Source: a virus
Taxonomy: Duplodnaviria > Caudoviricetes
Virus record (IMG/VR): IMGVR_UViG_3300010355_000588
Direction: 5' to 3' (one strand)
DNA: 64,000 nucleotides
The notes below the pieces were generated by a model that did not search any database, was not told where the DNA came from, and saw only the letters and a program-made list of their open reading frames with translations. Shown one piece after another: positions 12,684 to 54,573 of the stretch. The translations under genes were made by a program, and so were the position numbers. The number at the start of each line of letters is the position of its first letter. Positions within the stretch are counted from its first letter, which is position 1.

Positions 12684-13556
12684 TTACTTAGAAGAAGCTT
12701 CTAGGAGAGAATAATCGAGTTTTCCATCTGGAGATATCTTCAACAGCAACATTTCTCCTCTGTCTCCTCTGTAGTCTGTCTGGTCGCTGCAGAAGTTTCC
12801 AAGGCTATATGCCGTCAGATGGTCTTTTCCATTTATCTGGAATTTGTCTACGCGCTGGGGCACGTGCGGGTGAGAGCCAATTATGACGTCGAACAAATTG
12901 TTCTCATGTAGATAATTAGCTATTTCTAACTGATCTTTATTTGGCTTATGAGAATATTCTGAACCCCAGTGCATGTAGCATATTTTGAAATCTACTCTAA
13001 GCTCTTCAGCCTTAGCTACGTCGTTAACCACGTCTTCATATGAGAACATATTGACAATTGAAGACAATGGCTGAGGTTTTCTATTCAGGAGCATAGTATA
13101 GTTAGAAATGGATATGCGTCTTCCTTTTCTTTCTACTATCAGTGGGTTGTTTTTTTCCTTGTCCTTGTGGTCTATGAACGCGCCGGTTCTTCCGACCTTC
13201 AGCCAATCCAGGACAGAAACCGTACGTATAAGACCAGATTGGCCACGGTCTAGAATATGGTTGTTGGCGTTTAGAAAAACGTCGAAGCCTTCTTTGCGGT
13301 GTAAATCTATAGCGAATTTGTCAGGAGCTGAAAATTCTGGAAAGCCTCGAAAAGGAGCATCGCCCAACACTGTCTCAAGATTGACGACCTTTAGATCAGC
13401 CTCTGGCGTCTTTGGATATTCGAAGTGCCATCCATTGCCACCCTTTTCAGGCTTCCATGCTTTCCTCAGGGTTTCGTCATGGACCATAGCATCGCCAACA
13501 AACAATATAGTCAGCGGCTCTATCTGTTTTTCTAAAAAGAACCGTTCGAACTTCAT
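12684..13556 (-). CDS. CapA/PGA_cap family metallophosphatase with CTS-like leader
   Basis: VGDAM.H, VNLET, ANNHILDRG, HWGSEY, IIGSHPHVPQ, AYSLGNF motifs. Confidence 0.85.
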   Translation of the reverse strand: MKFERFFLEKQIEPLTILFVGDAMVHDETLRKAWKPEKGGNGWHFEYPKTPEADLKVVNLETVLGDAPFRGFPEFSAPDKFAIDLHRKEGFDVFLNANNHILDRGQSGLIRTVSVLDWLKVGRTGAFIDHKDKEKNNPLIVERKGRRISISNYTMLLNRKPQPLSSIVNMFSYEDVVNDVAKAEELRVDFKICYMHWGSEYSHKPNKDQLEIANYLHENNLFDVIIGSHPHVPQRVDKFQINGKDHLTAYSLGNFCSDQTDYRGDRGEMLLLKISPDGKLDYSLLEASSK

Positions 13557-13855
13557 TTAAGCTTATCGCCTAGATATTTGACGTCTACGTTGCTATAGTG
13601 ATTGTCAAATTTTCTGTTGAAAGTCAAAAGTCTATATATGTCTACCATTTTGTCTTCTACCTTCTTAGAGACAGAATGTACAAAGCCAGCCAGGTTGCCT
13701 TCTTTCTTCAAGGTCTGAACTCGTCTGCCACCAATAGCATTGTCGCTTTCGATGGAATAATATCCATCCTTAGGAAAGAGACGGTCGATGGCAGCCTGTT
13801 CTTTTGAACTTATAGAATATTCTAGAATCGTTTGGATTTTTTCTTCGAACTTCAT
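13553..13855 (-). CDS. Hypothetical protein with CTS-like leader (MKFEEKIQTILE)
   Basis: Leader shared with the 37-46 kb genes; TATAAATA at 13920-13927. Confidence 0.7.
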   Translation of the reverse strand: MKFEEKIQTILEYSISSKEQAAIDRLFPKDGYYSIESDNAIGGRRVQTLKKEGNLAGFVHSVSKKVEDKMVDIYRLLTFNRKFDNHYSNVDVKYLGDKLK

Positions 13856-23683: not shown

Positions 23684-24073
23684 TTATCTAAAATTCGAAT
23701 GCGTAACACGAACTTGCGGATATCCATCATTAGGCAGATCCACCACTATCTTTGCGGTAACTGTTTTGCCATTTGGGCGTTTTACAGTTCTTGGGGCGGA
23801 CTCCATACTATCAACGGCAGGCATCCAACCTTTCGAATTTTTGACTTGTTTGAAGCCAATTCCTTTTAAAGCCTTGATAGCATCTTCTTTTGAAGCAAAT
23901 TCTAACGTAGGACCACCTTCACCTGGAGCAGGATTGGTATTATATCCACTACGGACGTTGAATTTCTTAGCTAATTCAAGCGCAATAGTAGTGCTTGCTC
24001 CCCTAGCAAGTAGATCGTCAGAAATCTCAAAAGATTCAGCAATGATTTGTTCGACAAATTTTAAAAATTTCAT
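23684..24073 (-). CDS. Hypothetical protein with CTS-like leader
   Basis: MKFLKFVEQIIAES (compare T4 IP ..FIAE|); AATAAATA upstream. Confidence 0.7.
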   Translation of the reverse strand: MKFLKFVEQIIAESFEISDDLLARGASTTIALELAKKFNVRSGYNTNPAPGEGGPTLEFASKEDAIKALKGIGFKQVKNSKGWMPAVDSMESAPRTVKRPNGKTVTAKIVVDLPNDGYPQVRVTHSNFR

Positions 24074-24095
24074 GAATGTATCCTTACTAATTTAT

Positions 24096-25187
24096 TTATT
24101 TTATTTGAAGCCCAATTCTATCTTTCCATCCATTGGTAGAATTCTTGGATCTAAATTTGACCTTTAGATCTGAGCCTTCTTTGATAGAAAACGAAGGTTT
24201 GGATCCTCTCAGATTCACCATAACATATTTTACCTTCAAAAATTCATTTATGGTCTTCTCAAATATTTTAACGTACTTATCGCCGTTCAGTACAGAAATG
24301 GCAGCTTTCTCTATAGCATATCGTTGAGCTCCGTCGTCCATGTTCGAAGAATCATACTTGATTCCAAACATGTCAGCCAAATCATATGGAGCCATTTTTA
24401 TGCTAGACGTCGAGAGTATCTCTATGATTTTAGATATCTCGTCGTTCTTGTTTTGGAATAGATCAGCAATATCCTTAAGCTTTATGACGTTTGTAGTAGA
24501 GGCGTCAGCCTTAACTGAATATTTCTTGTCTCCATCCTTAGTTCTTATCATGAAGTCTATGAGTGGATAGTTTCCAGCCTCGGGAATGAATATGTATCCA
24601 TTTCTTGTCTGCTTGGCTGCTTCAATGGCAGCCAAAATTTCACCAAAGTTCTTTTCGACCTGAGCCAGATCCGAACCAAGTTCTTTAGCTAAGGTAGCAT
24701 ATTCTCTGGACGAACCGGTGGTGGTTGCTTCAACTGCTGCCTTTAAGAACATTTTCACCTTTTCTGGCAGATCAATTCTATTGTCTATGGAATTCATAAC
24801 ATTGCTAACGAAAGTTTTTACGTCATATTCTTTTCCGACGACGCCTTCGAAGTCCTGTGGTTTTACCTTCAATCCTTCTGAGCTTTTAGCCCATTTCATA
24901 TTGACGTCTTTTGGAGAAGTGGTGTCAGAAGTAGTATATATGATTAGAGCAAGTTTGGAAGTGCTGGAAAGGCAGCGCAATAGAAAGCCATTGTTAGATT
25001 CTTTCTTGAATTTTCTAACTTCGTCGAATTCGGATACGTTGGGAGGCGAAGTGAACCGTTCTATAGAATCCAACACATATTTGTGGCCACTACTCAAATC
25101 TTGCAGTTCGTCGCCAACATGACTTGCGTGAGTTATCCCACGCCCTTCGTTCAATCTTTCGTCAAAATATTCCAAAAATCTCATCAA
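24096..25187 (-). CDS. PD-(D/E)xK nuclease-like protein with CTS-like leader
   Basis: MRFLEYFDERLNE; FGEIL...NYPLIDF...YSVK restriction-fold motif. Confidence 0.6.
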   Translation of the reverse strand: MMRFLEYFDERLNEGRGITHASHVGDELQDLSSGHKYVLDSIERFTSPPNVSEFDEVRKFKKESNNGFLLRCLSSTSKLALIIYTTSDTTSPKDVNMKWAKSSEGLKVKPQDFEGVVGKEYDVKTFVSNVMNSIDNRIDLPEKVKMFLKAAVEATTTGSSREYATLAKELGSDLAQVEKNFGEILAAIEAAKQTRNGYIFIPEAGNYPLIDFMIRTKDGDKKYSVKADASTTNVIKLKDIADLFQNKNDEISKIIEILSTSSIKMAPYDLADMFGIKYDSSNMDDGAQRYAIEKAAISVLNGDKYVKIFEKTINEFLKVKYVMVNLRGSKPSFSIKEGSDLKVKFRSKNSTNGWKDRIGLQIK

Positions 25188-26976: not shown

Positions 26977-27351
26977 TTATTTCTTACGACCAAGATTGCC
27001 CTTAATTTTGTCTAGTGCGTCTTGTTGTTTGGGAGTCAAGAATTTATTCTCATCCAAGAAATCTTTAAGACCCTTCAAGAAGTCATGAAGCTTCTTCAGT
27101 CCATCGTTGTCAAGCAGGTCATCGATGAATTTCTTGGTGTTCTTGACATAGTCTTCGTTTTCCTTGAGAACCTCTCCTGCCTTCGCATAAAATTTGCTGT
27201 TCATTTCCAAAGCCTTCCTTTTTTGTGCTTTTATTTTGCGATAGTTCGTATAAGCCCTATCTTTCAAATTGTCCTGTTGGAGAGTTGAGGACATTGCCCC
27301 AGGTTGTTCCCCGACAGCTTCCATTTCTGAGATCTTCAAAAACTTCATCAT
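26977..27351 (-). CDS. Hypothetical protein, CTS-like leader
   Basis: MKFLKISEME. Confidence 0.6.
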   Translation of the reverse strand: MMKFLKISEMEAVGEQPGAMSSTLQQDNLKDRAYTNYRKIKAQKRKALEMNSKFYAKAGEVLKENEDYVKNTKKFIDDLLDNDGLKKLHDFLKGLKDFLDENKFLTPKQQDALDKIKGNLGRKK

Positions 27352-37051: not shown

Positions 37052-37390
37052 TTACTTCATCTTACCTTCTGCTTCCGCCTCTTTTTCCATTTTATCCAAT
37101 CTTGTGTAGTAATCCGGGATCTCAGCAAGATGATCCATGGCGATCTTCTTAGCCAGTGCTTCTTCTAACTGAGGGTTTACTCCCTTAGTAACGTGTTCCA
37201 TCTCGACACGGATTCCCATAGCTAACTCTTTTGGATCTACGTTTATTGGTTCGGCGGCTTCGTTCGATAGTCCGCCTTGTACCAACACTTTGAATATGTC
37301 GTTCACTCCAGGTATAGTAGAAGAAGTTGTCATCACTTCATATGGATGAGCCATCTCGAGTAGCTTGCTGATTCGTTTTTCAAATTTCAT
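37052..37390 (-). CDS. DUF5661-like protein with CTS-like leader
   Basis: MKFEKRISKLLE; ELAMGIRVEMEH...IAMDHLAEIPDYYTRL. Confidence 0.75.
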   Translation of the reverse strand: MKFEKRISKLLEMAHPYEVMTTSSTIPGVNDIFKVLVQGGLSNEAAEPINVDPKELAMGIRVEMEHVTKGVNPQLEEALAKKIAMDHLAEIPDYYTRLDKMEKEAEAEGKMK

Positions 37391-37425
37391 GGAAGTATCC
37401 TTTAAATATTGCCTTTAGCATATGA

Positions 37426-37908
37426 TTATTTATCTGCGGACATCTTAGGCACGCCAGCTGGAAATATTTCTTTCTCAGTGAGTATGATGAATTTAGCACC
37501 TTTAGCTTCAGCGAACTTGGAGGCAGCATTCCACTTGGCGGTATTTCTAATGTACGTCATTGCTTCTTCGTAGTACCGTTTGTCTGACTTTCTCCCCTTA
37601 ACCGGCATTATGGTCTCTTTGTGGGGTTTGACTTCGCAGTATATCTTGCTGATCTTTCCAGTCTTGTCCTTTACAGTAAAGGACAGATCGATAAAATATC
37701 TATGGGTGGTTCCGGCGCGCGATGGATCCACATATTCTACCACTGTCGATTCCGATCCCCATTGGAGGATGGCGGGATTAAGGTCCATATATCTAAAGCA
37801 TTGCAATTCCCAGGCCGAGCGGAAATAAATTTTTTGTAAGCACCCTATATACTTTTCCTTATTTCTAGGAACGAACTTGCCCTGCTTATAGCCATAACCC
37901 TTTTTCAT
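37426..37908 (-). CDS. gp4: Head completion nuclease
   Basis: GKFVPRNKEKY, FRSAWE, WGSE, HRYFID, EVKP, N.AKW.AA, F.ILTE. Confidence 0.9.
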   Translation of the reverse strand: MKKGYGYKQGKFVPRNKEKYIGCLQKIYFRSAWELQCFRYMDLNPAILQWGSESTVVEYVDPSRAGTTHRYFIDLSFTVKDKTGKISKIYCEVKPHKETIMPVKGRKSDKRYYEEAMTYIRNTAKWNAASKFAEAKGAKFIILTEKEIFPAGVPKMSADK

Positions 37909-38977
37909 AATCTTCCAGAAGTTGTTCTTTTGTTATCCAGCATTTAGCTCGCTTTTTGATATTAACTGAACATTCTAACATCTGTAAATTAGCAACTGAC
38001 GCTATAATTTCAGCTGGTATCTTCTGCTTAAATCCTTCAGCAATAGAAAAAATATGATCTAGATGATAACTATTTATTCTTCTATACAGATGGTTTGGGT
38101 TAATAATGTGTTTGTATTTCTCATAATTTATTTCAGTTAACATACTAACTTGTTTATAGTAATCATATCTTTCTATATCTTCTTGAGTTAGCTCTTTAAA
38201 TGGCTTTCTCTTTTTTAGCCAAGTTAATTTCTTTTTCTGATAAATTTTGTCTCTTTCTTTATCCTCAATATTTTCCCACCAATTTTGGCATTTTGTGTGT
38301 AATTTTTTAATAAATTCTTCCTTTTCAACTGGATTTAGTTTGTTCATCCAACTAAATTTATTGCTTCTTTCTTCTTTTGACATTTTTCCTATTTGTTCAT
38401 TTATCGTATTTTTTGATTTTGTGAATATTTCGCTTTTCTCTTCATCAGTTCTGTTCTTCCATACTTCAGTCTGGCCGTTTTTGGTTTTTTCTATAAATGC
38501 TGAATATCTATCTTCGTCGTGTTTTAATGTTTTTCTGAAATCAGCAGCTGCACATGATCTACACCTAAAGGTATCTTGCTTCTTGATATACTTGGCCTCT
38601 TCAGAAGATATGATATTGAAGGTCTTCTCTTTTTTGCAGTCTATACAATGCAACGTTATATCTATTCTAGGCAACATTTTAGCCTGGCTTCTACATTTGT
38701 TGGAACAGGTATCTGAATAACCAACTGTCAGACTAAAATACTTTCTATTCTTCTTCTGGCATATTGGACACTTTTTGTATTCTATGGCTACGTCATTTAA
38801 AAAGCAGTATAGACGTTCGCTATATGAAATATCTCCGAACTGTTCAGTGCTTTTTATTATATAGTTGAAAATAGCAGGGTGTTTGGATTTAGTAAAATTC
38901 TTAAATCCTTGGGTGTTGAAATTCATTTTCTCGAGAGTGGTTCTTACGAAATTTTTGAGAACTTCTTTGCGTAGCAT
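37886..38977 (-). CDS. HNH homing endonuclease-like protein
   Basis: C-terminal YHLDHIFSIAEGF...NLQML...N.KK; N-terminal Zn ribbons; AT-rich; overlaps gp4 start. Confidence 0.75.
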   Translation of the reverse strand: MLRKEVLKNFVRTTLEKMNFNTQGFKNFTKSKHPAIFNYIIKSTEQFGDISYSERLYCFLNDVAIEYKKCPICQKKNRKYFSLTVGYSDTCSNKCRSQAKMLPRIDITLHCIDCKKEKTFNIISSEEAKYIKKQDTFRCRSCAAADFRKTLKHDEDRYSAFIEKTKNGQTEVWKNRTDEEKSEIFTKSKNTINEQIGKMSKEERSNKFSWMNKLNPVEKEEFIKKLHTKCQNWWENIEDKERDKIYQKKKLTWLKKRKPFKELTQEDIERYDYYKQVSMLTEINYEKYKHIINPNHLYRRINSYHLDHIFSIAEGFKQKIPAEIIASVANLQMLECSVNIKKRAKCWITKEQLLEDYEKGLWL

Positions 38978-39006
38978 GATGGTATTCTTTCTTATGTGGT
39001 TGAAAG

Positions 39007-39014
39007 TATTTATA
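39007..39014 (-). promoter_or_regulatory. Late promoter TATAAATA
   Basis: Exact match upstream of HNH/gp4. Confidence 0.7.
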
Positions 39015-39024
39015 TAAGAAAGAT

Positions 39025-39049
39025 AAAAAAGGGAAGCATTGCGCTTCCC
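39025..39049 (-). terminator. Rho-independent terminator ending the CTS gene array
   Basis: GGGAAGC-gcaat-GCTTCCC-TTTTTT on the minus strand. Confidence 0.8.
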
Positions 39050-39085
39050 TACTTCCGAATTACCACATAAGGAAGATAATATTAT

Positions 39086-39430
39086 TTATTTCTTAGCTCC
39101 AATCAGTTCATCGCGAAGTATCTTGCCTAGCCTTTCGTTTTTGTTCTTGACGTCGGCTTTGGTAAAGGAGGTAGAATGTTTCTGGTTGAGATATTTTAGG
39201 GTAGCTTCGATTTCCTTGTCGTCGATGTCTGGATCTTTACTAACTGCTCTGGTAAGAAAACTTGCAGTAGAAGAAAATGCTTGATCCTTATATCTAGCCA
39301 TCGGCTCGCCCATGAGAGCAGCAAGAATTAGAATATTAGACAAAAAGTTACTTAGCTTTCCCTCTTCTAATTCGACAGTTTGGGCAGGTTCGCTTTCTAG
39401 AAGGCTTCTTACTTTTTGTTCGAACTTCAT
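39086..39430 (-). CDS. Hypothetical protein, CTS-like leader
   Basis: Start reassigned to MKFEQKVRSLLES (SD AAGGA). Confidence 0.7.
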   Translation of the reverse strand: MKFEQKVRSLLESEPAQTVELEEGKLSNFLSNILILAALMGEPMARYKDQAFSSTASFLTRAVSKDPDIDDKEIEATLKYLNQKHSTSFTKADVKNKNERLGKILRDELIGAKK

Positions 39431-39485
39431 CTGGTGTTTCCTTAGCTTCCATATTCTAGCGTTCTCTGATTGTCTGGTGCCATAT

Positions 39486-39560
39486 TCAGGCATTTGTCTT
39501 CATGTCGTCATGGAAACAATTATGGAACGTCTCTCTTATTTGTTTTTCTTCAAATTTCAT
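39486..39560 (-). pseudogene. Truncated CTS-leader gene remnant (MKFEEKQIRE..., 24 aa)
   Basis: Leader start followed by early TGA; leftover sequence to 39431. Confidence 0.5.
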
Positions 39561-39564
39561 CTTA

Positions 39565-39819
39565 TCAGCCTCTATTTAGTTCTCGTTTTTCGTCAACAAG
39601 TTCCACATATTGCTGTTGCAAATCGTTTATGTTCCATTCTAAGTCATAATTTTCTTTCTTGATCTTTTCAGTATAAGATGCTAAAGCCTTCTGATTGTCT
39701 TCCAACTTTTTCTTAGACTTTCCTATGTCTTTAGATATCTTATCTATTTTTGCTTGAATCTGTTTCAAGTCTGACTGTTTGTCTTCAAGCAACTTGTCGA
39801 TTTTTGTCTTGAACTTCAT
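39565..39819 (-). CDS. Coiled-coil protein, CTS-like leader
   Basis: MKFKTKIDKLLED. Confidence 0.7.
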   Translation of the reverse strand: MKFKTKIDKLLEDKQSDLKQIQAKIDKISKDIGKSKKKLEDNQKALASYTEKIKKENYDLEWNINDLQQQYVELVDEKRELNRG

Positions 39820-39830
39820 TTTATTATCCT

Positions 39831-40265
39831 TTATGGAAGCAAATAAAATGTATCTTTTCCACGCATCTTGGTCTCAGTAGCAGCCGCCTTCAGAGCATCC
39901 TTATATTTGCCACGATATTGGAATGCTTGGTCGTCCTTGTAGCTCTCTCCCGAGCGCAGGTACCCGATATGGAACATGAAATATCCTGTTGCAGTTGCCG
40001 CAAATTTTGGTTTCTTCCCATGGACAGCTTCATACTTGATGGTGTCATAAGTTACTCCATCGATCTTTGATTCTGATTCCAACAATTCTTGAATTTTTTC
40101 TTCGAACTTCATAATATTTCCTTCTGGTAGTTTGTCATAATCCACCCCATCTATCCATTCCTTATCCCATACCCACTTCCATTCGGCGGGAGTGGCTGCC
40201 TTTGTCTCATATTGAGAACGCTTGGCCTGAATCAGTTTGAACTGTTTTTTAGATTTAGCAGGCAT
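39831..40265 (-). CDS. Fusion of an MPAKSKKQ-type peptide with an internal CTS-leader protein (second start 40112)
   Basis: Internal SD AAGGA + MKFEEKIQELLES; cargo paralogous to 40566..40823. Confidence 0.65.
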   Translation of the reverse strand: MPAKSKKQFKLIQAKRSQYETKAATPAEWKWVWDKEWIDGVDYDKLPEGNIMKFEEKIQELLESESKIDGVTYDTIKYEAVHGKKPKFAATATGYFMFHIGYLRSGESYKDDQAFQYRGKYKDALKAAATETKMRGKDTFYLLP

Positions 40266-40555
40266 TAAGCAAGCATATCTCCAAATCCATAACCAAGATC
40301 TATATTGAATTTGTTGGACGCCAAAGTTTCGGCAACTTTCGTCTATTCTGCTTCCTTCTTATCTAAACGATTTCTCAAATTCGTCGCGTCGACTTCGATA
40401 TTGTAGAGTTTGATAAGCAAGTCTCTTAACGCTTTAGGAGTATTTGTATCTTTCATCAGCGCTGGCACGTCATTGCCATATAATGGACCTGGATTATCTA
40501 GATAATTTTGGTATGCTGATTCTTCCAGTTCTTTGATCTTTTCGTTAAATTTCAT
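40265..40555 (-). CDS. CTS-leader protein with in-frame TAG at 40343-40345
   Basis: Frame continues 25 codons past the TAG to a TAA overlapping the next ATG (TAATG). Confidence 0.6.
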
Positions 40556-40565
40556 GTCAGCGCCT

Positions 40566-40823
40566 TTATGGTTTTACATAGCTTAGTTCTTTTTCGCCAG
40601 CCTTCTTTGCTTTCTCAATGGCCTTCTTCTTGGCGTCCTTATAGGAACCCTCATATTGGAAAATCTTGTCAAGATATTTGGAATCCTTAGGACCCGAATG
40701 GGTTCCAATCAAGAATGAGAATATTCCGTTATCAGTGTCCTTCGGTTCGTCTTTTGCTTTGAAATATGGATTCGATGCCTCATCCAATAGCTGACTGACA
40801 TATTCTATGAATCTATGTTTCAT
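40566..40823 (-). CDS. Hypothetical protein, CTS-like leader
   Basis: MKHRFIEYVSQLLDEA; FQYEGSYKDAKK motif shared with the 39831 gene. Confidence 0.7.
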   Translation of the reverse strand: MKHRFIEYVSQLLDEASNPYFKAKDEPKDTDNGIFSFLIGTHSGPKDSKYLDKIFQYEGSYKDAKKKAIEKAKKAGEKELSYVKP

Positions 40824-41152
40824 TCGAATATCTCCGATGCTTTTCCAACAAGCTTATTGTCAACATATACGTTATAGTCAATTTTGCGAGATGGGTTCAG
40901 ATCCCGCACCCTCTTGTAAGTCTCTTCAGCAGCATCGATATTGAGCATGGGCTTCTTGGCATCGTGCATTTTGCTTTCGGTTCCATCGTTCTTGAGAGAT
41001 ATGAGCATTACTGGTTTTTTGTCCTGCCGATATTTTGCCAGATCGCTAAAGGCGTGTTTCCAGCCTTTGATAGCTTCTCCCATGGAAGTCTCCTCTGATT
41101 TGCCAAAGGTCGTTGTTCCTAACAACGCTTCAGCAAGTTGGTTGAATTTCAT
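40820..41152 (-). CDS. Hypothetical protein, CTS-like leader
   Basis: MKFNQLAEALL. Confidence 0.65.
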   Translation of the reverse strand: MKFNQLAEALLGTTTFGKSEETSMGEAIKGWKHAFSDLAKYRQDKKPVMLISLKNDGTESKMHDAKKPMLNIDAAEETYKRVRDLNPSRKIDYNVYVDNKLVGKASEIFE

Positions 41153-41214
41153 AGCAATCCTTTATCATATTTGTTAGATTTGTTAAATTTGTTATTCATT
41201 ATTTTTGCCTATAG

Positions 41215-41244
41215 TTACTATATAACAAGATTGGGATTTGTCAA
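41215..41244 (-). promoter_or_regulatory. sigma70-type promoter
   Basis: TTGACA-16 bp-TATAGT. Confidence 0.55.
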
Positions 41245-41269
41245 TAAAGCTATAGACAAAAATACCAAC

Positions 41270-41572
41270 TTATTTTGACTTCTTATATGCAGCTTCAAAG
41301 TCTTTCATCGCCTTAGCTTTGTCTACTTTGGCATCTGGACCAATTGGAAGGAACATCGCAAGCTTTCCATTGATGTAGATTCCCTTTCGGACGACGTCGA
41401 ACTCGGCATCTGGATATTTCTTAAGGAATTCAGCTTGGACTTCGTCAAGAATAGCAAGTGCTTTCTTAGAGACGTCGTCTTTCTGAAACTTAATATCGTT
41501 CATGTAGCGAGAAATATCTTCATGCGAGTAGGAAGCTTCGAGAAGTGAAGCAATTTTTTCTTCAAATTTCAT
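41270..41572 (-). CDS. Hypothetical protein, CTS-like leader
   Basis: MKFEEKIASLLEAS; TATAAATA at 41594-41601. Confidence 0.75.
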   Translation of the reverse strand: MKFEEKIASLLEASYSHEDISRYMNDIKFQKDDVSKKALAILDEVQAEFLKKYPDAEFDVVRKGIYINGKLAMFLPIGPDAKVDKAKAMKDFEAAYKKSK

Positions 41573-41593
41573 GGTATATTCTCCAGTTTATTT

Positions 41594-41601
41594 TATTTAT
41601 A
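41594..41601 (-). promoter_or_regulatory. Late promoter TATAAATA
   Basis: Exact match. Confidence 0.75.
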
Positions 41602-41615
41602 GAATCATTTAGATA

Positions 41616-42182
41616 TTAATTTACGTATTTCTTTATCAGATCATATGTTTTCTTATCCAGATTTACCATGCGCTCCTTGGTTCCTTCGAAGTCGTCGTTC
41701 TTTATATGGTTTCTGACCTCAGTAGCCGACATTACTCTATCTGACAGGGTTACTTCTAGGTCTCCGTTCAGTTTAGTTACGTAGTTCTGAGCCATTTGCT
41801 TGTAGAAAGGTATTCTATCTTCTCCAGCTATCAGCTCCACAGGTTCGTATCCTTCAGCCCTCAGCTTATCGAAGATTTTTACTAGGTCCGCTGATTCTAC
41901 CTGAACGACATCCTTTATCTTAGATATTCTAGCATTTCTGATTATTTTCTCCTGGACATCAGCTGGAAATGGATTCTTGTCTTTATCTTTAGAAGACACC
42001 GTTCCCTTTACAAGAAGCATGATAACTGGATGTTTGGCCTTCTTTACCATAGCTGCGTGTCCGATATGGAATGGCGAATATCTACCAATGATAATGGTGA
42101 CTTTGGTTTTAGCGGGTTCCAAGACATGGTCGTTTGGATTGAAGGCTTCTAAAATTTGTTTGCAACGTTCTATAAATTTCAT
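41616..42182 (-). CDS. HIGH-superfamily nucleotidyltransferase (cytidylyltransferase/NMNAT-like), CTS-like leader
   Basis: IIGRYSPFHIGH, KNPF, AGEDR, MSATEVR; start MKFIERCKQILEA with ATGA overlap. Confidence 0.85.
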   Translation of the reverse strand: MKFIERCKQILEAFNPNDHVLEPAKTKVTIIIGRYSPFHIGHAAMVKKAKHPVIMLLVKGTVSSKDKDKNPFPADVQEKIIRNARISKIKDVVQVESADLVKIFDKLRAEGYEPVELIAGEDRIPFYKQMAQNYVTKLNGDLEVTLSDRVMSATEVRNHIKNDDFEGTKERMVNLDKKTYDLIKKYVN

Positions 42183-43246
42183 AATTTCACCAAAGATATA
42201 ACTTTGACGCCAGGGGCGCCACAAATAACTTCCCATTTTGGTCTTTTATTAGATTCAGCTGACGGCTTTCCTTCCCAATATAATTTTACTTCTTTCATTA
42301 ACAAATCACCATATTTTTTAGCATTATCCTTTCTTTGCTTTGCTGTTTCAGCAAATTCATCTTCTTCTTTCCATCCTGCTCTAATACTTTCAAATTCATC
42401 GATTATGTTCATATCTGCTATATGATATTTTCCAAGTGGTTCTACCATATAAATATATGACCTGCCTAATTTTTTAGCATTATTAACTAGATCATCTAAT
42501 TCCTTGAACGCAAAAACACTGTTCAATCTAGGTGGCTTACTTGATGGTCTATGTTTTTCGAATATTTCTTCTAAATGTTTAATTGATAGATATACTGCCC
42601 ACATTCCACCTTTTACTTTCTCCAATGGGTCCCAATAGCCTTTGATGATTTCACCAGGTTTATATAATTCGGTATGTGTTGCGTGAAAAAACTGGTTTTC
42701 TTTTGGATTTTTAAATATTGCTCTAATATTTGTGTCTGCTTTTTTATCTTTTTCTTTAAAAGATTCTATAACCTGTTTTGTTACACCTATAATGAAGTCA
42801 GATACCTTCATGTTTTTAGGCTTTAGCCAGAGTTGTTCATTAGTTTTTTTGATATCTCCAAGCAATAAACTACCTTTCGCTTTAAGATAAGATCTATCTA
42901 TGATGTTTTTAGATACCTTGTCACGAAAAATATATTGCATCAATTTGTCTTTTGGAAATTTTTCGTAAATCTCTTTTATATGTTTGTCTGTAATTTCAAA
43001 GGCAAGCTGAATCATGCCATGAATATTAGAATCTGCGTTGAATGAATCGAAATCTTCATTGTATTCTAGATTATTTGGTATAAGCTATAATTCTTTATCA
43101 TAGAAAAGCTTGTCTAAAGATTTTACCGTATGATTAAGTTGTCCATTTTTTAGACTATTAAGATTGTCAAGGCCATATAATCCCGTCGCCATGTTATAAT
43201 TGTCTTCAAGTAATAGATATGCATTTACCAATTGTTCAAATTTCAT
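42179..43246 (-). CDS. Arr-like ADP-ribosyltransferase domain protein, CTS-like leader, in-frame TAG at 43085-43087
   Basis: FFHATH..LYKPGEII...RP...PRLNSVFAF...YIYMVEP...YW.G...WEVI; upstream in-frame MKFEQLVNAYLLLED from ATG 43246. Confidence 0.65.
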
Positions 43247-44436
43247 TTTCTATCTCCTCCAAAATAGGCTATTAGCGTGTTTATTTTGTCTTTGTCCATA
43301 TTGTTCAGCTTTGCTGCTTCGGCAGCTATGAACGCTGACTGATTGTCTTTCAGCGGAGAAGGCACGTTAGCTTTCTGTTGTTCCCACTGATCGATTATCT
43401 TATTGATGTCTTTCTGATATTGGTCAAGATGTTTAGCAAAGGTCTTTAGCAATTTGTCCTCAGTTTTGTTATCCATGACGTATTTGAGGGCGAACTTCCT
43501 GGCCTTATATCCGGTCACGTCAGCCATGAACTTCTTCTGGCGCTCTTCCAACATTCCAGATATCTTGAAATATTCTTCCTTTACATATTTCCATTCTGGA
43601 TTCTGGATGCCGACCAAACCACCGATGGTATGGAGAACCAACCCTTCTACTTTCGAGTCCTTGACTCCGAAGAGGCTGCCCTTTTCGTTGGCATATTTGA
43701 CGAAAGCTTCGTTTACTTTGTCTCGTAGCGATTCCAACTCTTCATGGTCGAGAGCATCCACATTAGTAACTACCTTCTTCATTGTCTTGTCGTCGACCTC
43801 GTAGAATAATGGTATGGATCCATTCCAGCGAAAGTCGACGTTGTTCTCGAGGACAGTGAACTCCTTGTTGGACAACGCTCGAATTTCTTTGTTCAGTGGA
43901 TGCCCAGGAACCTTTTCAAATTTTCCATTTTCTAAAAGCAATATGTCGAATATGACGAAGGTGGCGAAGGTGCCTAACTTCTTGGCGTCGTATTTAGTAG
44001 CCACAAAGGTTACGGTGCCATCCTTGTCAATGGGCAATCCATCCAAATAAAATAATTCTCCATATACCTTGAAGTCGCCATATTTCTTGTGTAGCTCCAG
44101 AAGCTTCTTACCAAACTTGCTTTCAATATATCTTAAAACTTCTCCATAGTTCTTCATTGGTCCAGAAAACTTGTCAGCCTTCTGCATGCCAGAGTTCGAC
44201 GTCTCCCCGAAGATCTCTCCTTGATAGACAGCGAACCGAAAGGATGAACCATCGATCTTCTCGGTAATTCGAAGTAAATCTAGATCTATGGCGCCATTCT
44301 TTATATATGGTAGAAGTTCCTTGAAGAACTGGATGAATTCCTTGTCATTCATCTGATGGATCTTCTTCATGGCTTCTCGCTTGGTCTTGGTGTCGACCTC
44401 TGCCTCATTCAATATGTAGTACTTTAGGAAGTTCAT
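43243..44436 (-). CDS. ATP-dependent ligase-like (KxDG) nucleotidyltransferase, RNA-ligase-like; CTS-like leader
   Basis: Motif I TEKIDG, III VYGELF, IIIa FVIFDI, IV VEGLVL; MNFLKYYILNEA. Confidence 0.75.
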   Translation of the reverse strand: MNFLKYYILNEAEVDTKTKREAMKKIHQMNDKEFIQFFKELLPYIKNGAIDLDLLRITEKIDGSSFRFAVYQGEIFGETSNSGMQKADKFSGPMKNYGEVLRYIESKFGKKLLELHKKYGDFKVYGELFYLDGLPIDKDGTVTFVATKYDAKKLGTFATFVIFDILLLENGKFEKVPGHPLNKEIRALSNKEFTVLENNVDFRWNGSIPLFYEVDDKTMKKVVTNVDALDHEELESLRDKVNEAFVKYANEKGSLFGVKDSKVEGLVLHTIGGLVGIQNPEWKYVKEEYFKISGMLEERQKKFMADVTGYKARKFALKYVMDNKTEDKLLKTFAKHLDQYQKDINKIIDQWEQQKANVPSPLKDNQSAFIAAEAAKLNNMDKDKINTLIAYFGGDRK

Positions 44437-45329
44437 GAATATTTCTCCAAGCCTTCTGGAATAGGCACGCCCTGGCTGATGAGACCTCTGACGACATCCG
44501 ACATTATTTTGTCACGTTTATCCGCATAGATGAAATCTTTATCCATGACGATAGAATATAGACTGTCGAAGGTCAGTACGTCTGATGGTTTGTATTTGTT
44601 TGGACCGAAAACATAGTCTAGAATCTTTTGTGGATCTTTAGTGAGAGTCTCTTTGTTTAGGGTCTTTACTGTAGCTGAGATGCCCTTCTTTCCCTTTATG
44701 CTCTGGGTTGCTTTACTTAATCCAGCATTCATGTCGAACATGAAGCGTTTCCATTCAACAGGAACCTCTATTCCTTCAGCATTGAACGCCTTTTCGATGA
44801 CTTCCATCTTGGATTGCTTGATGATACTGATTAGAAGCAGATTTCTATATAGACCTTTCCATTGGCTTTCCCATTCAGCTGGAGCATAATATGCGAAGGT
44901 TGAGAATTCGAGGTTGTCAGTAAGCATCAGATCGAGTTGAACAGACTGATTTTCTTGCTTTCCATCGATATTTGCGATCGGCCATGCTATAGAAATGATA
45001 GAAAATCCATAACTTGGAGTGATCTGATCGGTGAACTTTCTGGATTTGTCGCCAATGAAGTCGATGATGTCTTTTACCGTTGGCTTATTCTTATCTACCA
45101 TCTTCGTCATGTCTATAGCCAAATCGATATCTCCTGAAGATCCACCTGGCTTTTTCTTTCCAGTGCTTCCAAGAACTGCTACGTTGTCCTTTGTTAGTCC
45201 AAGGGTTGGCAGAAGTCTTTTGTAGATGTCATCCAGGGTAGCTTGCACGTTTTCCTGGTTGATTCTAGAAGCTTGGACAGCATTGCCGCCTTCCATTAGC
45301 CTTTCGAGATAATAATTTAGGAATTTCAT
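44433..45329 (-). CDS. Pol-beta superfamily nucleotidyltransferase, CTS-like leader
   Basis: LGSTGKK...SGDIDLAID...VQLDLM; start MKFLNYYLERLMEGGNA. Confidence 0.8.
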   Translation of the reverse strand: MKFLNYYLERLMEGGNAVQASRINQENVQATLDDIYKRLLPTLGLTKDNVAVLGSTGKKKPGGSSGDIDLAIDMTKMVDKNKPTVKDIIDFIGDKSRKFTDQITPSYGFSIISIAWPIANIDGKQENQSVQLDLMLTDNLEFSTFAYYAPAEWESQWKGLYRNLLLISIIKQSKMEVIEKAFNAEGIEVPVEWKRFMFDMNAGLSKATQSIKGKKGISATVKTLNKETLTKDPQKILDYVFGPNKYKPSDVLTFDSLYSIVMDKDFIYADKRDKIMSDVVRGLISQGVPIPEGLEKYS

Positions 45330-45925
45330 TTGAAGTCGATTTTTCCACGTTCGATTCTTTCTTGTATCCAATCTATCGTAGCATATGGACCTTTTATAGA
45401 TCCAACGCTATCTATGACATCGACGCCCGAACTATCTACGACGTCGACAGAAAAAGACGAGAATGTTTGAGATTCTATATATTTCTTCAGACTAGTCCAT
45501 GCCTTTAGAGACATCTTATTGGCAAAAGATATTCCATACATGCCAGCTGTAGGTGCTGAGAATCTGATCCAACCTTTTCCATAAGCCACCTTGAATGGCT
45601 TTATCATTGCTTGCATTGGGCTGGGAGAATCGGCATCCAAGAGGTGAGCAGCCAGATCCCGATGGGTTCTGAACTTCTTGTTGTCGAGGTTCAGTTGCTT
45701 TCCCTTTTCGTCGAACCAACAGGGCGTCAGTTGAGTGGCCTCGTTTAGACCAACCATCTCTTTTTTATGGTTCAATTTGAAAGTCTTGTCCTTGACATGC
45801 TTTATGCCATCTTTAGTATAAACGTCTCCCGAGAAATCTTTGTAAATTCCTGGAAGATTAGCCACCATCAGTATGGTGTCCTTTTCCTTCTCGAGAATTT
45901 CTTTGACTTTTTCTAGATATCTCAT
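45326..45925 (-). CDS. Hypothetical protein, CTS-like leader
   Basis: MRYLEKVKEILE; WF..KG...H...GWIRF. Confidence 0.65.
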   Translation of the reverse strand: MRYLEKVKEILEKEKDTILMVANLPGIYKDFSGDVYTKDGIKHVKDKTFKLNHKKEMVGLNEATQLTPCWFDEKGKQLNLDNKKFRTHRDLAAHLLDADSPSPMQAMIKPFKVAYGKGWIRFSAPTAGMYGISFANKMSLKAWTSLKKYIESQTFSSFSVDVVDSSGVDVIDSVGSIKGPYATIDWIQERIERGKIDFK

Positions 45926-46179
45926 AAGGTGTTTAGAATGTTTGAAAAGTCGTCCTTGATCTTCTGGTCGTCGAATTTCTTGGACATGTCAACCATCATG
46001 GACGTCAGCTTCGTTATGTTCGAATCGATATTCTTCATAGCAAGACCAAAAAGAGGTTCGAACATCTGACGTGCCAACTTATGCTTCTTTATGAACGAAT
46101 CTAAAGCAGCTATGAATTTCCGTTCCTTGTCCTCGTTTTCCAGCACCCTCTGATAAGCCTTCATGAATCTAAATTCCAT
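45922..46179 (-). CDS. Hypothetical protein, CTS-like leader
   Basis: MEFRFMKAYQRVLEN. Confidence 0.6.
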   Translation of the reverse strand: MEFRFMKAYQRVLENEDKERKFIAALDSFIKKHKLARQMFEPLFGLAMKNIDSNITKLTSMMVDMSKKFDDQKIKDDFSNILNTL

Positions 46180-46193
46180 TCTTCTTTCTCCGT

Positions 46194-47207
46194 TTATATG
46201 TCATTATGGCCGACATCTTTATCGGTCACTTCGTTGTTGTACCATTCGGCGAAATCGAACATAGTCATGCCGCTAGTAAGATAGTCAGCATTGCTAAAGA
46301 ATAGTAGATTTCCGTCTTCAGCAACTGTAAACTTTCCTTGGGAGACAAGCGACTCTGCTAGTGCAGATCCAGATACCGCTCCAGATATTTCTTGCCAATA
46401 TCCAGATATGTCACCAGATATAGGTAGCCAGTCCCAATTCTTTCTATTTCTATCAGCCTTGATGAGACCTGCTTTAATATTTTCTTTGAATCCATCGATT
46501 CCAACAGTAACTGGAACATCATACCATCTATCCAACATGTAGCCATCTTCGCCAAATGGAATGAGATTCGGAGTAGCGTTGATCTTGAGAATCTTCGGAA
46601 GATCGTCGTCATATTCGCCAACGCCAGGAAAGAACCATGTCTTGAAGGTAAAGGAAACGTCGCCCAAACATCTATATGGAGCCGATTCAGGTAGATCTTC
46701 TGGAATAGTTGTCGAGACGCTTCCGTCCCAAACCACCTGGGATTTGATATTGCACGAAGGAAACTTTGGATGTTTCCATACGACGTAGATATCTGGCTGG
46801 AAGAATGGAATGAAGTTGTTTACTATCTGGTCTAGATCTTCTATATAGCGAGTTATCGCAGTGAGAGTGAAAGTGACATTTATTGGAATTGGAGTGGCTT
46901 GGGCTGTATTCGAATATCCATCAGTCCCAAATAGTAGATGGTTGTGGATAGAATGCACCCTCTGGACATCTCGGACGAATCCAACACGGTTTACAGCTAT
47001 CATAGGGACAGATAAAGTCTTGTTTGGATTTTCCAGAGACTTCAGAATTCTAGAGCGCTGTCCAAACACGCAAGGGACCTCAATAAGCTTCTGAATAGTC
47101 GGGTCATCTATTGAGCCCGTTCTTCTATCTATAACGATATTATTAAAGACATCCATGAACATCGCAGTGGCTATCTTTAATTCGGAATTATAGGATCTAA
47201 ATTGCAC
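46194..47207 (-). CDS. gp15: Tail sheath terminator/stabilizer
   Basis: F.DVFNNIVI.R, I.VP..FG, P.PINV.F.L, DQIVNNFIPFFQP, FTFKTWFF. Confidence 0.9.
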   Translation of the reverse strand: MQFRSYNSELKIATAMFMDVFNNIVIDRRTGSIDDPTIQKLIEVPCVFGQRSRILKSLENPNKTLSVPMIAVNRVGFVRDVQRVHSIHNHLLFGTDGYSNTAQATPIPINVTFTLTAITRYIEDLDQIVNNFIPFFQPDIYVVWKHPKFPSCNIKSQVVWDGSVSTTIPEDLPESAPYRCLGDVSFTFKTWFFPGVGEYDDDLPKILKINATPNLIPFGEDGYMLDRWYDVPVTVGIDGFKENIKAGLIKADRNRKNWDWLPISGDISGYWQEISGAVSGSALAESLVSQGKFTVAEDGNLLFFSNADYLTSGMTMFDFAEWYNNEVTDKDVGHNDI

Positions 47208-49011: not shown

Positions 49012-49722
49012 ATGAACCAACTGAACGAACTCAAACTAATCGTTGAGAACGATCCTCACGAACTCGAATATATTCTAGAACAAAAGAACGAACGCGCGCC
49101 TGGATTTCTAAGAATCAAAGGTCCATATATCGTCACCGAGAAAAAGAACGCCAATGGCCGTATCTATTCCAGATCGCTTATGGAAAAGTCGGTGGCTGAC
49201 TTCAAGACAAACTACATTGACAAATGCGTGGCCTTTGGAGAAATGAACCATCCAGACCATAACCATATTGACTACAACAATATCTGCCATAAGATCGTCT
49301 CGCTCACACAGGAAGAAGACATTTGGATAGGCGAATCAGTAGTTCTAATGACGTCAGCTGATGGAACTGTCAAAGGCACCCCTAAGGGCGACATACTTGC
49401 CTCGGTCATCCATCATGGCGGTAAACCAGGCATGTCTACCCGCGGCGTTGGAAAATTATCAGAAGGCAATGTCGTCAAAGACCAATATAAGATGATAACT
49501 ATCGACTGTGTCTCCAATCCATCTGGACCCAACTGCTACGTGAATGGCATTCTCGAATCGAAGACATTCATGATAGATACCTACGGAGACATCGTTGAGA
49601 AAGCATTCGAACAATTTCAGAGAAATCTCGAATCGATTCCAACCCACTCCATCAAGACAGACGAAGGTTCGAAGCATCTGATCGAATCGATAAAGAATTT
49701 CATCGATAGTCTAAAAGTATAG
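49012..49722 (+). CDS. gp21: Prohead protease
   Basis: NANGRIY, GEMNHP, TPKG, GMSTRGVG, D.VSNPS. Confidence 0.95.
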   Translation: MNQLNELKLIVENDPHELEYILEQKNERAPGFLRIKGPYIVTEKKNANGRIYSRSLMEKSVADFKTNYIDKCVAFGEMNHPDHNHIDYNNICHKIVSLTQEEDIWIGESVVLMTSADGTVKGTPKGDILASVIHHGGKPGMSTRGVGKLSEGNVVKDQYKMITIDCVSNPSGPNCYVNGILESKTFMIDTYGDIVEKAFEQFQRNLESIPTHSIKTDEGSKHLIESIKNFIDSLKV

Positions 49723-49957: not shown

Positions 49958-50383
49958 ATGAAATTTAGTAGATTATGCGAAAGCTTGCTTAACTCAAAAA
50001 CAATATTAGAACAAAAATTCACAAAAGCTAATATGTTTATGAAAGTTAGCCCAAAGGAATTTAATTTAGATCAAAAACAATTTGATAAATTAAATCTTTT
50101 TTTGCTCCGTGCGATATATTCTAATATAAACGCGGATAAGAGAGGCATAAAAATTGGGCTTACTTCTTCCGTTCTGAATTGGATGTTCGAAAAATTTTAT
50201 AAAGATGCTGAAAAATTCTTCAAAGTAACTTTTTCCGATTCCGCTAAAGAAGCGATGTTTGATCATATCAAATTTATTAATAAACTAAAAGGATCTGAAC
50301 TTGAAGATTTAGGCCGATTTATGCATGAACTTGATCCTACTCTATCGGACGACAAATATGCAGGCCGTCCATTTTGGAGTTAA
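49958..50383 (+). CDS. AT-rich hypothetical protein with CTS-like leader inserted in the head module
   Basis: MKFSRLCESLL...ILEQ; own ATAAATA promoter. Confidence 0.65.
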   Translation: MKFSRLCESLLNSKTILEQKFTKANMFMKVSPKEFNLDQKQFDKLNLFLLRAIYSNINADKRGIKIGLTSSVLNWMFEKFYKDAEKFFKVTFSDSAKEAMFDHIKFINKLKGSELEDLGRFMHELDPTLSDDKYAGRPFWS

Positions 50384-50421: not shown

Positions 50422-51300
50422 ATGAAAGACATTCTCAAGAAGCTTTTCGAAAGCATCGATCCTCAGAACTCTCTCATCAAAGAAGATGTTCGTGCTAGTC
50501 TCACTGAACAATTCGAATCGAAGATGGCTGAGCTGAAGGAAGCTGCATATAAGGAAGCATTGGAAAAGGTTGACGAAGAACATTGCGAACTGCTTGACAA
50601 GGTCCGTGCCAAAATCGACGAAGACCACTGTGAACTTTTGGACAAGGTTCTTGAAAAGATCGATGAAGAACACACCGAACTTCTCGATCAGGTCGTCGAA
50701 AAACTTCGCAGCGAAAAACTATCTGAATCCAATCGTGAAGTTGCTAAATATGTTTCAGATTTCCTCGATACCTATCTAGATGAAGCAATCCCAGAAACCA
50801 CTGTCAAGGAATCAGTCGAAACCGCCGCATGCAAGAAGATCTTCGAACAGATCAAGCAGGCGATGGCGACCTACGAAGTTTCTATCGATGCCGAAATCAA
50901 CGAAGCGTTTCTCGATGGCAAACAGATTATCGACGAAAAAGAAAAAGAACTTTCCAAACTCATGTTTGAAAAGATCGAACTTAAAAACGAACTCGAAGAT
51001 CTGAAACGCGCGAAGATCGTCGAAGAACAAACTAAATCGATGTCTCCTAAGCTCAAACTCTTTGTCGAAACGCAAGTCAAAGATGCCGAGCTCGACAAGG
51101 TTGAGGAGAAAATTGCTGAGGCAGTAAAGGCCTTTGACGCTGACGAAAAGCAGCTCCGTCAAAAACTAAATGAATCTGCCGATTCAAAATCCAAACTTGG
51201 AACGCTCGTCCCAGTTAGCGAAAGCACGACAGACAACGTGGATCCAATGATGGAAATGTATCGGAAGATGGTTGCGAAAAGCAAGCAATTGAATGGCTAA
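50422..51300 (+). CDS. gp22: Prohead scaffold protein
   Basis: Acidic coiled coil before MCP; three 15-aa KIDEEHxELLD repeats; C-terminal DPMMEMY. Confidence 0.85.
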   Translation: MKDILKKLFESIDPQNSLIKEDVRASLTEQFESKMAELKEAAYKEALEKVDEEHCELLDKVRAKIDEDHCELLDKVLEKIDEEHTELLDQVVEKLRSEKLSESNREVAKYVSDFLDTYLDEAIPETTVKESVETAACKKIFEQIKQAMATYEVSIDAEINEAFLDGKQIIDEKEKELSKLMFEKIELKNELEDLKRAKIVEEQTKSMSPKLKLFVETQVKDAELDKVEEKIAEAVKAFDADEKQLRQKLNESADSKSKLGTLVPVSESTTDNVDPMMEMYRKMVAKSKQLNG

Positions 51301-51334: not shown

Positions 51335-52792
51335 ATGAAACTCACAGAAGGCGCACTTTACAGAGGTCTTCCCGCTAATTTCCAAGAACAGGTGTACTCC
51401 AAGTGGGCATCTGTCATCGAAGAAGGCGGAGACATCACCGACGAACGTAAGAAACTCGCTACAGCTATCGTTTTGGAAAACATTCAGAACGCCGAAGACC
51501 AACGCATTGGCCGTCTTCGCGAAGCATATGCTGGAATCTTTCCCCAAGCTGGCATGGGCGCTCAGACAACTGGTTCTGATGGCGGCGGCCAATTTGGCGC
51601 ATATGGCGACTTCGTCACGACTGGCGTAAATCCCAACGACGCACGTATCCCCTCCATCGTCATCCCAACTGCACGTCGTATGTTTCCCGAACTCATCGCG
51701 TTCGAGGTTGCTGGCGTTCAGCCAATGATGGCATCTGTCGGCTGGGCATTCGCCATCCGCGCGAAATACGGCAAGTTCGGCAAAGGCGGAGCTCAAGGCG
51801 TTGCTGAAGGTACTGAAATCGGCTACAACCAGCTTGACTCGGCATTCACCGGCGCATCCGGCAACGCAATGGAACTCTCTGCCAACAGTTATTTCCAGGC
51901 ATTTGCTGGAGCTCCTGGCGCGCCCAACGGCACGACCAAGTTCGCAAATCCATTCGGCCAAGGCGCAACCCTTGAAAATTCGGAATGGTGGAACATTGGC
52001 GAAGACATGCCCATGGTCACTTTCGACTATCTGAAGAAATCCGTTGAAGCAAAAACCCGTAAGGTTGGTGCACAATGGACTCCAGAACTTGCCGAAGACA
52101 TGATGAACACGCAGGGAGTCGACGTCAACTCCGAAATGATCGGAATGGCGCAGTATGAAATCCGTGCTGAAATCGACCGTCAGCTCATCACTGAGATGGT
52201 TGTCGCAGCTATCAACAACGTTGGAATGGACGGAACGACCCCAGATCCCCGCGTTTCCACATGGACTCCGGTTTCTGCAGACGGCCGTAACCAATTCGAA
52301 CGTATGCTAACTCTCTACACGCACGTCCTCGAAAAATCACAGGATATCGGAATCAAGACACGCCGTGGCTCCGCTACGTTCGCTATCATGAGTCCAAAAC
52401 CTGTCGCATTGTTCGAACAGATGGGCGACATCGACACGACTGGCCGTACGTCCATCAGCTCACAAGGCGTTGGCGTCGCGAAAATCGGAACGCTGAAACG
52501 CGGCAACCTCGCCTGCTTCCGTGACACGTTTGCCGGCGGAAACTATATCCTTCTCGGATACAAGGGACCAAATCCGTACGATGCGGGAGTTATCTATTGT
52601 CCGTATATTCCTCTCCAACTCGCAACCGCCGTTGGTCAGGAAAACTTCACACCGCGCATTGGCGTCCGTACCCGTTACGGAATCCTTGGCAACGTGTTTG
52701 GTGCGGGTAATTATTATCACCTCATCAAGCTCGACGGCATGTCCGGAACTCTGCTCAACGCAGACAGCGGCCGTGTCTTCACCTACAACTGA
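51335..52792 (+). CDS. gp23: Major capsid protein
   Basis: LEN, RRMFPELIA..VAGVQPM, VEAKTRK..AQWT.ELAED, EIDR, GYKG...DAG..YCPYIPL, F.PRIG..TRYG. Confidence 0.97.
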   Translation: MKLTEGALYRGLPANFQEQVYSKWASVIEEGGDITDERKKLATAIVLENIQNAEDQRIGRLREAYAGIFPQAGMGAQTTGSDGGGQFGAYGDFVTTGVNPNDARIPSIVIPTARRMFPELIAFEVAGVQPMMASVGWAFAIRAKYGKFGKGGAQGVAEGTEIGYNQLDSAFTGASGNAMELSANSYFQAFAGAPGAPNGTTKFANPFGQGATLENSEWWNIGEDMPMVTFDYLKKSVEAKTRKVGAQWTPELAEDMMNTQGVDVNSEMIGMAQYEIRAEIDRQLITEMVVAAINNVGMDGTTPDPRVSTWTPVSADGRNQFERMLTLYTHVLEKSQDIGIKTRRGSATFAIMSPKPVALFEQMGDIDTTGRTSISSQGVGVAKIGTLKRGNLACFRDTFAGGNYILLGYKGPNPYDAGVIYCPYIPLQLATAVGQENFTPRIGVRTRYGILGNVFGAGNYYHLIKLDGMSGTLLNADSGRVFTYN

Positions 52793-54559: not shown

Positions 54560-54573
54560 ATTTTCAATTTGAC

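Follow-up and report, generated by a model that had tools for sequence, protein, structure and literature searches.

In a 64-kb stretch of DNA (64,000 nucleotides; IMG/VR record IMGVR_UViG_3300010355_000588; hereafter the window), part of the genome of an uncultured and very divergent T4-like myovirus, 16 to 22 of the 81 genes used for our counts share a short N-terminal leader. Thirteen of the 17 genes at positions 37052-46179 (hereafter the array) belong to the larger set. Our comparisons establish that this leader exists, is selected as a peptide, is a portable addition to unrelated domains, ends in a consensus site for the head protease and is conserved as such an addition in relatives. 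We think that the shared N-terminus is probably a lineage-specific capsid targeting sequence of the T4 type, cut by the phage's own gp21-type protease, and that by analogy with T4 the proteins bearing it would be packaged in the head and delivered to the host.

Reading of all open reading frames (ORFs) and their start regions gave the leader consensus M-K-F-x-x-K-[IV]-x-x-[LI]-L-E, about 12 residues long. A strict pattern was defined as M, K/R/N/E, F/Y/H, 4-10 residues and then L/I/M-x-E; it was found in 16 of the 81 genes, each having its [LIM]-x-E site by residue 15, with L, I or M as the P3 residue. A looser rule, under which M-K-F may vary slightly and the site may be shorter or non-canonical, adds six genes (12684-13556, 26977-27348, 40820-41152, 42179-43015, 45922-46179 and 49958-50383), giving a total of 22. 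Within the array 11 genes are strict, the clear looser ones being 40820-41152 and 45922-46179, and the two genes without a leader are both endonuclease-like. The gene at 40343..40555 fits the strict pattern only through I-K-E at residues 7-9 or L-E-E at residues 9-11. In all carriers the leader begins at residue 1, its length being 11-15 residues in the 16 strict genes and 8 in three of the looser ones.

The pattern is far more frequent than chance would give. Six-frame counts were 10 for the strict form, compared with 0.11 in codon shuffles (about 90-fold), and 21 compared with 2.1 for the loose form. The motif stands at residue 2 in 15 genes, where 0.18 would be expected from its internal rate, and M-K-F opens 15 of the 81 proteins while following just 2 of 437 internal Met residues. 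No leader was seen on the tail, baseplate, portal, terminase or early-type genes of the window; among the early-type genes at 35.9-37 kb and 54.5-60.3 kb the count was 0 of 18 (Fisher p = 0.011). All-against-all BLASTP of the carriers returned N-terminal matches only, confined to residues 1-26 save for one pair that reaches residue 43, thus the carriers are otherwise unrelated. At the DNA level, 48% of same-residue leader codon pairs use different codons, which argues that selection acts on the peptide and not on the DNA; third-position identity is 0.50, and the regions upstream of the leader genes are dissimilar. These results bear out most of what the initial annotation had claimed: leader ORFs occur where it had placed them, they are otherwise mostly unrelated, and the two early clusters lack the leader. 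Its figure of more than 20 such ORFs holds under the generous rule and shrinks to 16 under the strict one.

In T4, gp21 cuts after the Glu of L/I-x-E, ten N-terminal residues of the internal protein IPIII suffice for capsid targeting, and in that leader residues 4 and 7 matter for targeting and residues 8 and 10 for processing; replacing the terminal Glu by Asp stops the processing and leaves the targeting unaffected (PMC9026906). The window encodes a protease of this type, 31% identical to T4 gp21. It is intact, with its catalytic His and Ser conserved; they align with T4 His85 and Ser140. Sites of the same kind are found in the head proteins around it. The N-terminus of the protease itself contains I-V-E (residue 12) and I-L-E (residue 23), and the 141-residue product of 49958..50383 is encoded in the region that in T4 holds small core genes 67 and 68, gp68 likewise having 141 residues. 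In the capsid protein, the propeptide shows [LV]-x-E followed by A/S near residue 62, conserved in the clade and near the aligned T4 cut. The N-termini of gp21, gp22, gp24, gp67 and gp68 in the T4 reference genome carry similar sites. Pfam domains of the carriers start after the leader; in the PGA_cap-family protein, for example, the domain begins at residue 16.

Since the leader ends in the cutting motif of the phage's own head protease, the most likely fate of the roughly twenty leader proteins, judged by what is known of T4, is to enter the capsid, be trimmed there and reach the host together with the DNA. By the same analogy, an amphipathic leader helix would attach these proteins, made late, to the core of scaffold inside the forming prohead, the S77 (gp21-type) protease would remove the leader after its terminal Glu, and the mature proteins would lie free within the head until infection, when they would go out along with the DNA. 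The initial annotation's proposal of a T4-type leader cut at [LI]-x-E is supported by the sequence-level tests (the intact protease, the sites in core proteins, two relatives described below and the junction seen in one enzyme family).

That family is the Pol-beta-type nucleotidyltransferase (NTase) encoded at 44433-45329, which has 720 representatives and no Pfam model. In the window the M-K-F start of this gene is fixed by a 4-nt overlap with the upstream gene. Of the normal-length members, 103 in number, 59 are extended at the N-terminus, with Glu as the last residue before the conserved G-G-N-A; the extensions are about 4-33 residues long, mostly 9-13, and 56 of the 59 close with hydrophobic-x-E. 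About a dozen further members are alike with a variant start, and many leaders of the family are close to that of T4, some of them very close. Twelve members start exactly at G-G-N-A, in-frame upstream stops being confirmed for two of them. In longer or polyprotein members, hydrophobic-x-E precedes 27 of 28 internal NTase modules. An AlphaFold model of the enzyme (61 sequences; mean predicted local distance difference test score, pLDDT, 94.8) has a Pol-beta-like fold, with TM-scores of 0.35-0.40, and places the leader outside it as a separate helix (residues 3-12, pLDDT near 59). Both the sequence pattern and the model are as would be expected for a removable, portable address in front of a cargo domain. 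The giant proteins P0236, P0237 and P0240 (1500-1800 residues) contain two or three NTase modules each with junctions ending in hydrophobic-x-E, and judging from these sequences they look like protease-cut cargo polyproteins.

Two relatives of the phage carry leaders of their own. In a marine contig (L172) whose gp3-like protein is 49% identical to that of the window, the gp3-like gene is followed in the same order by a Pol-beta-type NTase, an RNA ligase, a small ORF, an NTase with the HIGH motif and another small ORF, and all five proteins start with M-K-F and have a leader ending in [LI]-x-E. The NTases are 46% and the ligases 33% identical; these two were assigned as orthologues by BLAST, and the HIGH NTase was matched by position. 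The leaders differ in sequence and in length (13 residues in the window compared with 11 in L172 for the NTase, 11 compared with 8 for the ligase), and in both enzymes the conserved mature sequence begins directly past the leader Glu. The second relative (G001; 262 kb) has a capsid protein 55% identical to that of the window and 14 genes beginning M-[SG]-K-F, mostly M-S-K-F-Q-E-L-Y-E, which is nearer to the T4 leader. Its leader pattern gave 13 matches compared with 0 in a reversed control, with varied codons. Eight of its leader genes stand in tandem adjoining the gp67-like, scaffold and capsid genes, two lie just past the protease, and the cargo is almost wholly unlike that of the window.

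Elsewhere in the clade, a regular expression for the window's leader found no match in the capsid-gene loci of relatives, where direct reading of N-termini revealed different leaders. A degenerate DNA pattern for the leader, too loose for the purpose, gave at least 119 single scattered matches in viral contigs and no contig with several. Homologues of the DUF5661 protein from many metagenomes carry T4-like leaders of various kinds. Two further relatives (L001, 366-966; L174, 16701-17267) each have a pair of small genes with N-A-Y-x-x-M-[LI]-x-x-E in common, at a distance of about 20 residues from the N-terminus, which may be a third leader type of the clade.

Several observations weigh against the capsid-targeting reading. 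The leader has no clear sequence homology to M-K-T-Y-Q-E-F-I-A-E of T4, [LI]-x-E is short and common as a motif, and 6 of the 22 candidates are non-canonical, P3 being V, F or Q or the site standing at residue 8. For two genes, 39831 and 39086, the frame remains open upstream of the M-K-F start (51 codons, to 40265, and 21 codons, 39086-39493, respectively), and the longer forms, if made, would have the leader inside the protein; a good ribosome-binding site goes with both of the M-K-F starts. The HIGH NTase homologue of G001 is leaderless and aligns from residue 23, and since some NTase and ligase homologues are leaderless as well, these enzymes can work untagged. Reading the G001 gene as a frameshifted leader fusion was considered and rejected, a separate 32-codon leader ORF and a hairpin lying upstream of it. 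Some twenty cargo species may also be too many for each to reach a useful copy number per head, and the support in this phage and its clade is in silico.

One alternative is that the leader does target the prohead core and is cut there, while most carriers are core or scaffold accessories degraded or expelled before packaging. The precedent is T4 itself, where gp22, gp67 and gp68 bear the same sites and are degraded (PMC9026906), and the position of 49958-50383 between protease and scaffold, in the region of T4 genes 67/68, would suit it, as would the eight G001 leader genes directly beside a scaffold gene. It leaves several intact enzymes (the RNA ligase with its KxDG motif, the confidently modelled NTase, the HIGH NTase and the PGA_cap protein) as accessories with no obvious role in assembly, and we consider it unlikely. 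The helix could otherwise be a docking or regulatory tag acting away from the capsid, either assembling a late multi-enzyme complex or serving as a pro-segment that keeps enzymes inactive until it is cut. This would leave unexplained why the tag is on about a dozen unrelated small proteins, on the scaffold and on the protease, why it constantly ends in an S77 site and why G001 clusters it with head genes; we hold it to be quite improbable, even if the evidence here comes from sequence and not from contact with the head, and the NTase, ligase and HIGH NTase recur together, even fused, and so probably form one complex. Finally, the common start could be a feature of the nucleic acid, serving translation initiation, forming a recombination cassette or stemming from 5' gene ends that were recently duplicated. 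This could be suspected because expressed genes often have Lys at codon 2 and early codons rich in A, and because the exact T4 leader, present twice in the T4 genome, is DNA-identical in its two copies, yet the divergent codons and upstream regions described above, together with relatives that keep the peptide pattern with other sequences, make this highly improbable.

Taking packaging as the preferred reading, the predicted cargo falls into two parts. The recognisable carriers are the RNA ligase, the Pol-beta-type NTase, the HIGH NTase, the PGA_cap-family protein and the DUF5661 protein; the remainder is about a dozen small, mostly basic proteins with no family assigned, the predicted mature cargo having an isoelectric point above 7.8 in 15 of 21 cases. 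PHROG and Pfam returned nothing for most of the small cargo proteins, no family was found for 45922..46179, and megablast of the array against 50,697 phage records gave no match. Homology of the HIGH NTase (41616..42182) to its relatives begins only past the leader. In other phages (P0290, P0388) the NTase and RNA ligase are fused as a protein of about 677 residues, and NTase, ligase and HIGH NTase stand side by side in several unrelated contigs, with and without leaders (L172, L177, L178, L179). This fusion and recurrent adjacency suggest that the three enzymes form one functional module, and the sequences point to a conserved module for nucleic-acid repair or modification. The initial annotation had offered the array as a candidate list of injected anti-defence effectors; it needs amending to the extent that at least part of the cargo is a conserved enzyme module and not a list of small inhibitors. 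Its description of an unusually large payload is fair.

Of the other array genes, 42179..43015 encodes a protein whose C-terminal half resembles a DUF2441/DUF4433 (DarT-like) fold, which we take as a lead only. The C-termini of 40566..40823 and 39831-40112 are alike, and the gene at 37886..38977 is a probable mobile insert of the endonuclease type. Features of the array and of the head genes are collected in Table 1.

Table 1. Leader genes and neighbouring head and tail genes of the window.
Position	Strand	Gene or product	Leader and context	Family match
12684..13855	-	Two leader genes: PGA_cap-family protein and 100-residue ORF		
23684..25184	-	Two genes, 129 and 362 residues	Strict leaders; among baseplate genes	
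26977..27348	-	123-residue ORF	M-K-F start, short site I-S-E at 6-8	
37052..37390	-	DUF5661 protein	12-residue leader; last array gene, followed by terminator-like hairpin 36993-37014	
37426..37908	-	TnsA-like endonuclease	No leader	Pfam 2.3e-16
37886..38977	-	363-residue protein	No leader; behind TATAAATA at 39007-39014	
39086..39430	-	114-residue ORF	12-residue leader; followed by terminator-like hairpin 39030-39050	
39565..39819	-	84-residue ORF	12-residue leader	
39831..40112	-	93-residue ORF	12-residue leader, good ribosome-binding site	
40343..40555	-	70-residue ORF	M-K-F start; residues 10-12 E-E-E, not [LI]-x-E	
40566..40823	-	85-residue ORF	15-residue variant leader	
40820..41152	-	110-residue ORF	M-K-F start, short site L-A-E at 6-8	
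41270..41572	-	100-residue ORF	Archetypal 12-residue leader; own TATAAATA at 41594-41601	
41616..42182	-	HIGH-motif (cytidylyltransferase-like) NTase	12-residue leader	Pfam and PHROG
42179..43015	-	278-residue ORF	Weak leader only: I-K-E at 13-15, no M-K-F	
43085..43246	-	53-residue ORF	14-residue leader	
43243..44436	-	RNA ligase, KxDG motif	11-residue leader ending L-N-E	Pfam RNA_ligase 2.6e-9
44433..45329	-	Pol-beta-type NTase	13-residue leader ending L-M-E right before conserved G-G-N-A	
45326..45925	-	199-residue ORF	Strict 12-residue leader, M-R-Y..I-L-E	
45922..46179	-	85-residue ORF	Variant leader ending V-L-E at residue 14; first after gp3-like gene	
46194-47207	-	gp3/gp15-like sheath stabiliser	Adjoins array	
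47314-49008		T4-type portal		
49012..49722	+	gp21-type prohead protease		Peptidase_S77, Pfam 1.9e-18
Between protease and 141-codon ORF		gp67-like ORF, 47 codons		
49958..50383	+	141-residue ORF	M-K-F start; hydrophobic-x-E-type sites at residues 8 and 18; between protease and scaffold	
50422..51300	+	gp22-type scaffold	N-terminus ending L-F-E at residue 10	
51335..52792	+	gp23-type major capsid protein		

Among the head genes there are matches to the T4 families Portal_T4, Gp23 and T4_CASP, yet no cultured phage has a major capsid protein more than about 31% identical to the window's. Genes for terminase, sheath and baseplate are found in other parts of the window. The array is located directly past the gp3-like gene, which has a late-type motif of its own. 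Exact TATAAATA occurs 10 times compared with 3.0 expected, with two copies inside the array; the promoter- and terminator-like features named here are consensus matches only. Nearly all leader genes had initially been placed behind (T/A/G)ATAAATA late promoters, which was overstated: such a motif lies within 120 nt upstream of only 5 of the 16 strict leader genes. The others overlap or abut their upstream neighbour, with translational coupling, and belong to operons that stand behind motifs of this kind. Between 52.8 and 60.5 kb, sigma-70-like sites are in excess (32 compared with 18.3), which is not so in the array (34 compared with 31), where one match lies upstream of 40820..41152. Just beyond the array, 35154-35927 encodes a sigma-70 region 2/3 protein of 257 residues, a candidate for the late sigma factor of the phage; another contig (L173) has a gene like it next to a TnsA-like gene.

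Some further features were recorded. Two large HNH or homing-endonuclease-like genes are present in the window (28812-30041 and 52877-54598), one of them directly past the capsid gene on the opposite strand, like segD in T4. In one contig (L176, 558-3806) the portal gene contains an intein, with Intein_splicing between two Portal_T4 matches in a product of 1082 residues; in another (L175, 5339-10001) the tail-tube gene lies between genes for two large ankyrin-repeat proteins, one of 492 and one of 888 residues.

Should the leader act as it does in T4, some twenty candidates for delivered proteins, most without a known family, can be listed from sequence, and delivered internal proteins act in the first seconds of infection. 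The NTase result leads to a more general rule, applicable to metagenomic T4-like phages, in which a leader or internal junction ending in hydrophobic-x-E right before a conserved start would mark packaged cargo and polyprotein cut sites. The leaders could also provide alternative address tags for protein-delivery uses of phage heads. A bolder idea, which we put forward tentatively and with more doubt than conviction, is that across a broad uncultured T4-like clade a lineage-variable hydrophobic-x-E address is a portable code for preloading RNA-repair-type enzymes, injected against host defences that act before phage expression; the set would comprise the Pol-beta-type NTase, the RNA ligase, the HIGH NTase and possibly an ADP-ribosyltransferase-like protein. 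If true, this would be the first case of packaged RNA-repair enzymes, and the packaged proteome would be readable from sequence alone.

The closest known system is the sequence that targets IPI, IPII and IPIII, the T4 internal proteins, to the capsid (Mullaney and Black 1996, reviewed in PMC9026906). T4 has three internal proteins, all of which inhibit restriction enzymes that target modified DNA, and at least ten are known across T-even phages (PMC12373910), whose varied ip genes are recognised by the targeting signal (PMC12373910; PMC3012670). As in T4, a short N-terminal leader ending in L/I-x-E, the gp21 site, is found on otherwise unrelated, presumably late proteins, the gene for an S77 protease of the gp21 type lies beside those for scaffold and capsid, and relatives have very different sets of cargo. 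The consensus residues F3, I7, L10 and L11 give an amphipathic type like that of T4, not alignable residue for residue. The window's leader differs in having another sequence and a greater length (12-15 residues compared with 10), its carriers number 16-22 in 64 kb compared with two exact copies in the whole T4 genome, and they include enzymes of 190-400 residues; moreover, part of the cargo keeps its gene order in a distant relative, although the system is known here from sequence alone. In T4 Inh (L169, 11328-12008), whose annotation is that of a minor head protein which inhibits the protease, residues ~129-142 (K-F-E-Q-x-V-x-x-I-I-E-S-E) are much like the window's leader consensus and resemble the leader of 39086..39430; with an E-value of 3e-4 in a tiny database, this internal match is a lead only.

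The propeptides of T4 gp21, gp22, gp24, gp67, gp68 and Alt are likewise short N-terminal segments ending in hydrophobic-x-E, a feature that recurs in the window on the protease, on the scaffold and on the product of the gene at the gp68 position. However, the T4 propeptides have no sequence in common, whereas the window reuses one consensus (M-K-F...). In phiKZ-like jumbo phages many head-internal proteins are cut after Glu by a distant gp21 homologue, yielding a large ejected protein mass (PMC9026906, PMC7411985), but the preference there is S/A(/G)-x-E and here L/I/M at P3, and the window has T4-type head genes; neither the S/A/G-x-E motif nor phiKZ-type head genes characterise it. The N-terminal signal of P1 DarB is also sufficient to bring a large enzyme, or a foreign reporter, into the head of a myovirus that then delivers it; it differs in being about 30 residues long, in being known from a single protein, in its dependence on stepwise Dar assembly, and in lacking an S77-type cleavage consensus (PMC9024508). 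We found no description of expanded leader sets in uncultured T4-like phages in the literature, of which our coverage is incomplete. Relative to T4, what is new is a different leader, present on a fifth or more of the window's genes, with enzymes among its cargo and with cargo conserved in a distant relative.

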